Positions 28,601 to 31,600 of a DNA stretch of 36,025 nucleotides are shown in pieces. Made by a program: the position numbers. Positions within the stretch are counted from its first letter, which is position 1. Every line of letters begins with the position of its first letter. The stretch spans positions 1-36,025 of IMG/VR virus record IMGVR_UViG_2522572021_000002; one strand, given 5' to 3'. Origin of the DNA: a virus. Taxonomy: Duplodnaviria; Heunggongvirae; Uroviricota; Caudoviricetes.

Positions 28601-31600
28601 CTGCTTCCCGGGAGGGCATTATGCCTGGTGATGAGAGCGGGCCTGAGCAAAATCACACAGACGATGGTGAGCAGTTGCACAACACTGATGCTACGGATGA
28701 TGTTAAAGCGGTCCGTGTGCGGAAATGCCTGCATGTGATGGGGTATTGCCCGGAGACAGGCCGTCCCGTTGAACTGACGTACCGGGGCATGCGTGTTCTG
28801 GTGCCATCACCACTGGCGACAGCCATGATACAGCACGGAACGGCTGAGCATGCGTGATTTTCAGAATGCCTTTGATGCTGCCCTTGCCGGGGTGGACAGC
28901 ACGATTGTTGAAGTGATGGGGCTCTGTGCGCAGTTCACCTCGGGGGCACAGTGTGGCAGCGAAGTTCAGGGGGTTTTTGACGATCAGCCGTTTGACCGGC
29001 AGATTGTTATTCCGGCGGTGGCATTCAGTGGCGCTAAGCATGAGAGAGAGCATACTGATATTTACTCCTCATGCCGTCTGATAGTGCGGAAAAACGGTGC
29101 TGAAATTTATAACCGTACCGCGCTGGATAATACGCTGATTTACAGTGGCGTTATTGATATGCCTGCCGGTCACGGTCACATGACGCTGGAGTTTTCGGTA
29201 TCAGCATGGCTGGTGAATAACTGGTATCCCACAGCAAGTATCAGCGATTTGCTGGTTGTGGTGATGAAGAAAGCCACCGCAGGCATCAGTATCAGCTGAA
29301 TTTTATAACCCATATACGGGCGCCAGAAATGGCGCCTTTTTTATTGCAGAAAAGCGAGAGGTAATTATGCGTAAACTTTATGCCGCCATTTTGTCCGCAG
29401 CCATTTGTCTGGCCGTATCCGGTGCGCCTGCATGGGCGTCTGAACATCAGTCCACGCTGAGCGCGGGGTATCTTCATGTCTCGACGAACGTTCCTGGCAG
29501 CGATGAACTGAACGGGATTAACGTGAAATACCGTTATGAGTTTACGGACACTCTGGGAATGGTGACGTCATTCAGCTATGCAGGAGACAAGAATCGCCAG
29601 CTGACCCGTTACAGCGATACCCGCTGGTTCAGCGTGATGGCGGGGCCGTCTGTGCGCGTGAATGAATTGTTCAGCGCGTATGCGATGGCGGGTGTGTCTT
29701 ACAGCCGTGTGTCGACTTTCTCCGGAGATTATCTGCAGGTGACCGACAACAAGGGGAAAACGCATGATGTGCTGACCGGAAGTGATGACGGTCGCCACAG
29801 CAACACGTCTCTGGCGTGGGGAGCTGGCGTGCAGTTTAACCCGACCGAATCCGTGGCCATTGATATTGCTTATGAAGGCTCCGGCAGTGGCGACTGGCGC
29901 ACTGACGGTTTCATCGTGGGTGTCGGTTATAAGTTCTGATTAGCCAGGTAACACAGTGTTATGACAGCCCGCCGGTTCAGGCGGGCTTTTTTGTGGGGTG
30001 AATATGGCAGTAAAGATTTCAGGTGTACTGAAAGACGGCACAGGAAAACCGGTAGAGAACTGCACCATTCAACTGAAAGCCAGACGGACCAGCAGCACGG
30101 TGGTGGTGAACACGGTGGCCTCTGAAAATCCGGATGAAGCCGGTCGTTACAGCATGGACGTTGAGTACGGTCAGTACAGCGTCATTCTGTTGGTGGAGGG
30201 CTTCCCGCCGTCACATGCCGGGACCATCACCGTGTATGAAGATTCTCAACCCGGTACGCTGAATGATTTTCTCGGTGCCATGTCGGAGGATGACGTCCGG
30301 CCGGAGGCACTGCGCCGTTTTGAACTGATGGTGGAAGAGGTGGCGCGTCACGCTGAGGAGGCGAAGAAGAATGCCGGAGAGGCGGAGACGTCAGCGAGGA
30401 ATGCCGGCATATCAGCCAGTCAGGCAGAAGAGAGCGCTGCAAATGCTGATACTTCAGCAGAGGATGCATCGGAGTCAGCCCGGCAGGCGGCAGAAAGTGC
30501 AGCCTCTGCAAAGAAGTCAGAGGAAGCGTCCTCGTCCTCAGCCTCTGAGGCCGCTCAAAAAGCCAGTGAGTCATTACAAAGTGCAACAGATGCCGAGTTG
30601 TCAAGAAAGACGGCAGAAAGTGCAGCCGGTAATGCATCCAGAGACGCAACGACAGCAACAGAAAAAGCCCGGGAGTCAGCAGAAAGCGCACAGTCAGCGG
30701 AACAAAGCAGGATAGCGGCGGAAGAGGCCGTAAACCGAATCCCCACCGTGGTGGGACCTCCCGGGCCAAAGGGGGAACAGGGGCCCGCGGGTCCTCAGGG
30801 GCCGAAGGGTGATAAGGGAGAGCGCGGTGACACCGGCCCTGTCGGGGCAACCGGCGAACGGGGACCGGCAGGTGATGCTGGTCCGGCAGGCCCGCAGGGG
30901 CCGAAAGGTGACATGGGAGAGCGGGGAGAGACCGGTCTGACGGGAAATGCAGGTCCACAGGGTCCAAAGGGAGATACCGGTGCGGCAGGCCCGGCAGGCC
31001 CACAGGGACCGAAAGGAGAAACAGGTGCGGCTGGCCCGGTGGGGGCAACCGCACCTCAGGGGCCGAAGGGCGACCCGGGGGAGACGCAAATACGGTTCCG
31101 TCTGGGGCCGGGAAACATTATTGAGACAAACAGCAATGGCTGGTTCCCGGATACAGATGGCGCACTCATCACCGGACTGACCTTTCTTGACCCCAAAGAT
31201 GCCACACGGGTTCAGGGGTTTTTTCAGCATTTGCAGGTCAGGTTTGGTGACGGGCCGTGGCAGGATGTCAAGGGGCTGGATGAAGTGGGCAGTGATACAG
31301 GCAGAACAGGAGAATGACATGAATATACTAAAAAAACTTATGCAGCGTCTGTGTGGTTGCGGAAAGCATGATGGCCGTGAACACGTGCAGTCGCTTACAG
31401 CACAACTGCGACTGGGGCCGGCAGACATCCTGGAGTCAGATGAGAATGGCATTATTCCGGAGCAGGACAGGGTAATCACACAGGTGGTGATACTGGATAC
31501 AGATAAAAAGCTGATACAGTGTGTGGTAAGACCGCTGCAAATCCTGCGTGCTGACGGGACGTGGGAAAATATTGGCGGGATGAAGTAACCCGACAGCTTC

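Follow-up and report, generated by a model that had tools for sequence, protein, structure and literature searches.

An FII::J fusion in place of the tail genes of a defective lambdoid prophage in Escherichia coli O145:H28

Portions of the texts of Cooper 2014 (PMC3893438), Nakamura 2020 (PMC7067040) and Asadulghani 2009 (PMC2669165) treat prophage decay of the type considered here in general terms, and two described systems bear directly on the locus that we examine. The first is Sp3/CP-933K of O157:H7, a prophage at the ybhC-ybhB site that has the same lambda-like late-gene order as our element, carries T3SS effector cargo past its tail fibre genes, counts among the 'defective prophage pool' and is inactivated by several lesions, namely IS insertions, deletions and frameshifts; according to part of Asadulghani 2009 (PMC2669165), it also resembles our element in being without repressor and replication functions and in having a disrupted int. 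As listed in a table of that study, Sp3 of O157 Sakai is without head functions but still has its genes for tail and host specificity. The second is the general class of short-homology (illegitimate) deletions, whose end points lie in a short direct repeat of which one copy is left, and for which slippage and break-and-annealing are indistinguishable by sequence. Here we describe a lambdoid prophage of O145:H28 in which an in-frame fusion of FII to the 3' end of J follows directly on the head genes.

A defective prophage between ybhC and ybhB

The stretch of DNA analysed here (the window, 36,025 nt) corresponds with 0 mismatches to positions 837137-873161 of the chromosome of E. coli O145:H28 strain RM13514 (NZ_CP006027.1). 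It starts in ybhC, and a lambda-like prophage then runs until just before ybhB-bioA, a location that is the classical lambda attachment region, ybhC/ybhB-bio. As proposed in the initial annotation, the head genes follow the lambda order: Nu1, A, W, B, C, D, E and FI all lie upstream of the scar at 99-100% identity to an intact relative, A being frameshifted. The last intact head gene is FI (28474-28857, plus strand), which encodes a DNA-packaging protein identical over 127/127 aa to FI of strain 13E0725 and named gpFI in RefSeq.

When the window was searched by tblastn with queries from intact relatives, no homologue of Z, U, V, G, T, H, M, L, K or I was found in its 36 kb, and the FII and J queries matched over residues 1-45 and 1051-1158 only, respectively. 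The initial annotation had listed all tail genes from Z through J as absent; this holds for Z to I and for 91% of J, while the 3' end of J has been kept. Beyond the scar the order is the J-lom spacer with its hairpin, lom, the side tail fibre genes, nleH and cif, with espJ sitting just outside the window. The terminator and lom that had been noted after the ORF are both in place: a terminator-like hairpin (GGGCGCC-AGAAAT-GGCGCC followed by a T run; 29318-29345, plus strand, with the stem-loop at 29318-29337) separates the remnant of J from lom (29367-29939, plus strand), an Ail/Lom outer membrane beta-barrel gene and the first gene kept to the right of the missing block. From 28986 to 29366 the sequence has 100% identity to the corresponding stretch of intact prophages, and the hairpin is, by this comparison, an ordinary component of the spacer between J and lom.

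The side tail fibre genes (30004-31588, plus strand) encode two proteins, one with the N-terminal domain and collagen-like repeats and one with the C-terminal domain, and their retention means that some tail-related genes remain. Within them, the collagen-like Gly-X-Y repeats at 30750-31090 consist of six diverged 43-nt direct repeats, and this GC-rich stretch also gives long spurious ORFs on the opposite strand. The tail fibre genes are followed directly by nleH (31694-32575) and cif (32799-33626), both of which encode T3SS effectors; cif is intact in the window and frameshifted in O111:H- 11128 and C325.

The FII::J fusion and its junction

The scar is occupied by a chimeric in-frame ORF of 149 aa (28850-29299, plus strand), FII(1-45)::J(1055-1158), whose ATG overlaps the FI stop (28857) in the same arrangement as in intact relatives. 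Its first part comes from FII (head-tail joining or head completion), of which the 5' 136 nt, codons 1-45, are kept (28850-28985, plus strand; 97.8% nt identity to PhiR12_1 FII). Residues 1-45 are identical (45/45) to the intact 117-aa FII of strain 13E0725, the alignment stopping there, and residues 1-46 match lambda gpFII 1-46 (PDB 1k0h, E=2e-8). The FII-like N-terminus proposed in the initial annotation is therefore present, with its limit at residue 45/46 and not at about 50. The remainder had been described there as unrelated sequence, which is incorrect, although the accompanying suggestion that the C-terminal part of about 100 aa might be the 3' end of the host-specificity gene proved right: residues 42-149 are identical at 107/108 positions (99%) to residues 1051-1158 of the 1158-aa J protein of O111:H- 11128. 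Residues 36-148 likewise match lambda gpJ 1018-1131 (PDB 8iyk, E~1e-16), and the best solved-structure match of the ORF is the gpJ fragment in PDB 9wca (E=2e-34). Lambda shares the gene order FI-FII...J-lom, whereas the J allele of the ORF is of the EHEC-prophage type and not lambda's own. The J segment proper (tip attachment or host specificity; 28986-29299, plus strand, including the stop codon) is 100% identical at the nucleotide level to J 3' ends of many EHEC prophages.

In terms of domains, the one Pfam match of the ORF is to PF12421, the J C-terminal receptor-binding domain, with 109.9 bits (E=1.3e-31; cut-off 26.2) over profile positions 21-135 of 135, of which the J segment proper accounts for about 27-135. 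The match is clipped at its N-terminal edge, since the J-derived part begins at J 1055 and the domain starts near 1028 in intact J; its first ~27 residues are missing from the fusion and about 80% of the domain is kept. Conversely, PF05354 (gpFII / Phage_attach), which recognizes the intact O111 FII with 67.6 bits, gave no match to the ORF at E<=0.01, and FNIII-A_GpJ, Phage-tail_3, Ig_J, Ig_J_second and Phage_Tail_Tip, all found by Pfam in the intact O111 J, are absent from it. The ORF thus falls outside the FII family as a full-length member and retains the FII position right after FI. Overall, it preserves 45 of 117 FII residues (38%) and 104 of 1158 J residues (9%).

At the nucleotide level, the match to FII spans 28850-28985 and the match to the last 329 nt of J spans 28971-29299, so that the two overlap by 15 nt. 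In three-way alignments this junction microhomology, GGGTTTTTGACGATC (28971-28985, plus strand), agrees with FII at 15/15 and with J at 14/15 positions; the J version of the repeat reads GGGTTTATGACGATC, and its last 8 nt are perfect. The base at 28977 in the window is of the FII type, which places the crossover within the perfect 8-mer TGACGATC (28978-28985). The breakpoint is at codon 45/46, leaving a J-derived part of 104 aa, and in protein terms the shared repeat reads GVFDD in FII and RVYDD in J; the junction 30-mer is GTTCAGGGGGTTTTTGACGATCAGCCGTTT. With PhiR12_1 (FII) and Stx2a_1447 (J) as separate references the junction is identical, at lower identity.

In a scan of the O111 prophage, comparing FII with the 11 kb downstream through J, the junction pair was the sole pair of 15-mers with at least 14/15 matches. 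Exact 8-mers common to FII and the downstream sequence number 83, and the longest exact match, of 11 nt, is not the one used.

Undeleted relatives and the origin of the scar

What has been lost can be read against E. coli O111:H- 11128 (NC_013364.1 859414-899794), in which a homologous prophage lies between the same flanking genes. It carries the full FII-Z-U-V-G-T-H-M-L-K-I-J-lom series and shares with the window element the nleH, cif and espJ cargo and the inverted nin/lpxR block. The initial annotation had proposed that the deletion be mapped against intact relatives and the ORF aligned to J C-termini; beside the J match described above, this comparison shows that 11,160 bp are missing from the window relative to O111:H- 11128. 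The right arm of the window (28971-36025, 7.1 kb) is 99.07% identical to this prophage, and the left arm, made up of the head genes, is 95.9% identical and matches up to 28985. With about 96% on one side and 99% on the other, the sequences suggest that the two arms may differ in recent history. The true undeleted parent was not found among the relatives compared.

A second relative, the dusA-site prophage of 13E0725, is colinear with the window over an 8.2-kb head region at 98.9% identity, again up to 28985. It was rejected as a reference for the right end point, because its J 3' end is another allele that matches only from 29215, and the right end point was mapped on O111:H- 11128 instead. 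The O111:H- 11128 homologue has itself decayed in a complementary way: its tails are kept, with L frameshifted, whereas on the head side an IS629-type element has taken the place of Nu1, A and W and truncates the portal gene, which lacks its 5' part.

We conclude that the scar very probably goes back to one deletion event, which took ~11.2 kb out of the interior of a lambda-like prophage, a case of ordinary decay. We observe directly where the breakpoints lie, the microhomology that they share, which genes are missing and that the arms are colinear with an undeleted same-site relative. These observations supply both features by which an internal deletion is recognized, colinear arms and a direct repeat at the ends. 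Such a deletion would have joined FII nt 136 to the last 314-329 nt of J at the 15-nt microhomology. FII would have lost its 3' 62% in the process and J its first 1054 codons (91% of J), and the genes between them, Z, U, V, G, T, H, M, L, K and I, would have gone entirely. The reading frame would have been kept by chance, the ORF running to the natural J stop and being followed by the natural J-lom spacer. The junction consists of FII and J sequence only, with no IS, att-like or mobile-element sequence in it, and we infer that the event was a homology-poor recombination, illegitimate and of the slippage or annealing type, and not a site-specific or IS-mediated excision.

The same microhomology could also have served for an illegitimate crossover between two different lambdoid genomes, both of them prophages already in the cell or one of them a phage coming in, by which a head module of foreign origin would have become linked to the J'-lom-effector arm of the resident. 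The unequal identity of the two arms to O111 would be in line with such a history. So would the FI-FII 5' segment, which is 100% identical to prophages elsewhere (e.g. the dusA-site prophage of 13E0725), and so would the opportunity for exchange, as lambdoid prophages are many per genome (9-13 places per record) and inter-prophage recombination is documented in O145:H28 in part of Nakamura 2020 (PMC7067040). However, for the element to have stayed between ybhC and ybhB, joining of this kind would call for one or more additional exchanges, and replacement of the head module by homologous recombination, before or after a simple deletion, explains the identity gap equally well. We consider the crossover between genomes improbable, and its outcome would be identical, a tail-less scar. 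The single internal deletion is the reading that we retain in what follows.

Further lesions, the fate of the fusion and its distribution

The loss of tail genes is one of several lesions in the element. Two IS629-type copies (4229-5538 and 17885-19194), each of 1310 nt and 100% complementary to one another, enclose an inverted 12.3-kb block (5539-17884), in which the holin gene, Q, lpxR, the nin genes and ren all lie on the minus strand. Lysozyme is split between the inside and the outside of this block: its 5' part is at 5539-5941 on the minus strand and its 3' part at 19195-19292 on the plus strand. The 3-bp target duplication AGC of the insertion into lysozyme is now divided between both IS629-type copies, which shows that the inversion occurred by recombination between the two IS copies. 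The other flank pair of these copies is without a duplication, consistent with loss of the neighbouring N-cI-cro-O-P region. With the Q block inverted, the late operon no longer has access to its activator. A moron, an lpxR-family lipid A deacylase gene (13791-14750), adjoins Q and the nin genes and is also present in the O111:H- 11128 homologue.

Elsewhere, the integrase gene (1419-3756) is interrupted by IS600 (about 2490-3646), with a short N-terminal arm-binding fragment beyond the IS and xis intact, and no immunity or replication genes (cI, cro, O, P) appear in the annotation. The terminase large subunit gene A (21751-23678) is frameshifted near 23589-23598; C325 and ESDR8 share the tail deletion but have an intact A, and the frameshift is thus later than that deletion. 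Similarly, lom has an in-frame 27-bp deletion near 29628 (9 aa, HEDSVRNRW) between 7-bp direct repeats CCGCTGG, 650 bp from the scar. In ESDR8 lom is full-length at 600 nt, and the match in RM11626-C1 is also 27 nt longer; both genomes have the FII::J junction, which makes the lom deletion a later, second short-homology event. Measured against an inducible, particle-forming prophage, the element falls short in int, immunity, replication, the Q operon, terminase and tails, and it is a defective lambdoid prophage.

What remains of FII and J is most likely a non-functional remnant, a pseudogene. We base this reading on the composition of the fusion, in which most of the FII fold and all tail-tip-building parts of J are gone. 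We find it highly improbable that the fusion is instead expressed and maintained, for instance as a free receptor-binding-domain fragment with a role in the lysogen. In such a case read-through or IS-borne promoters might drive it and it might block incoming phages of the same J type, a scenario that strikes us as far-fetched. The fusion has kept the FII start with its overlap of the FI stop, it is in frame, no carrier inspected has an interrupted ORF, and most of the J receptor-binding domain is in place, all of which would suit an expressed product. Yet preservation of the frame is a one-in-three chance, and the carriers are near-clonal, so that an unbroken ORF carries no information on selection. 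The Q/late-promoter block, lying on the opposite strand between the two IS629 copies, no longer reads into the head genes, and a promoter scan of 28300-30100 gave no sigma-70-like promoter. Although the receptor is at the cell surface, the ORF has no obvious export signal, and beside the start of the receptor-binding domain the entire trimeric J scaffold is missing. The fusion is accordingly treated below as a remnant.

Of 5426 complete E. coli genomes, 26 have a match that crosses the FII::J junction in one piece, and most of the 25 carriers listed are labelled O145 or O145:H28. In the three loci that were opened, RM13514, C325 and ESDR8, the junction lies at the same ybhB-bioA site, and the exact 149-aa product occurs on 464 contigs. 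An assembly artefact is refuted by this recurrence in 26 independently finished genomes and 464 contigs, and a genuine divergent full-length FII, for which N-terminal similarity and nothing else speaks, by the lack of an end-to-end FII alignment or Pfam FII match (100% FII for 45 residues and then none, the rest 99% J) and of Z-to-I homologues in the window, so that together these two readings have virtually no probability left.

RM13514 and RM13516 both carry the junction. According to the part of Nakamura 2020 (PMC7067040) that types these genomes, RM13516 is ST6130 and the other six complete genomes compared are ST32, and the deletion event therefore probably predates the split of these O145:H28 sublineages.

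Databases name the 149-aa product 'Phage tail fiber protein' or 'Fibronectin type III domain-containing protein'. These names are misleading and the pseudogene reading is the proper one; RefSeq/PGAP already flags the J part as a pseudogene ('phage tail tip protein, incomplete, missing N-terminus'), and the case is one of routine prophage decay. The FII::J junction is not mentioned in the searched portions of text from Cooper 2014 (PMC3893438), Nakamura 2020 (PMC7067040) and Asadulghani 2009 (PMC2669165).

Without its tail genes, the O145:H28 prophage at the lambda attachment site cannot form tails, and this loss together with the other lesions makes the element a fixed chromosomal island and not a mobile phage. 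Its cargo has been retained despite the lesions: lom, nleH, cif and espJ are all kept, lom and the T3SS effector genes being independently useful. Confined to one locus and to so small a fraction of complete E. coli genomes, the scar is a clean lineage marker, and beyond such bookkeeping it is of little importance.

Compared with Sp3, the element of O145:H28 is reversed, with heads retained and tails gone. With its end points in a short direct repeat and one copy of that repeat left, the FII::J scar is a textbook short-homology deletion, and nothing sets it apart from others of that class.
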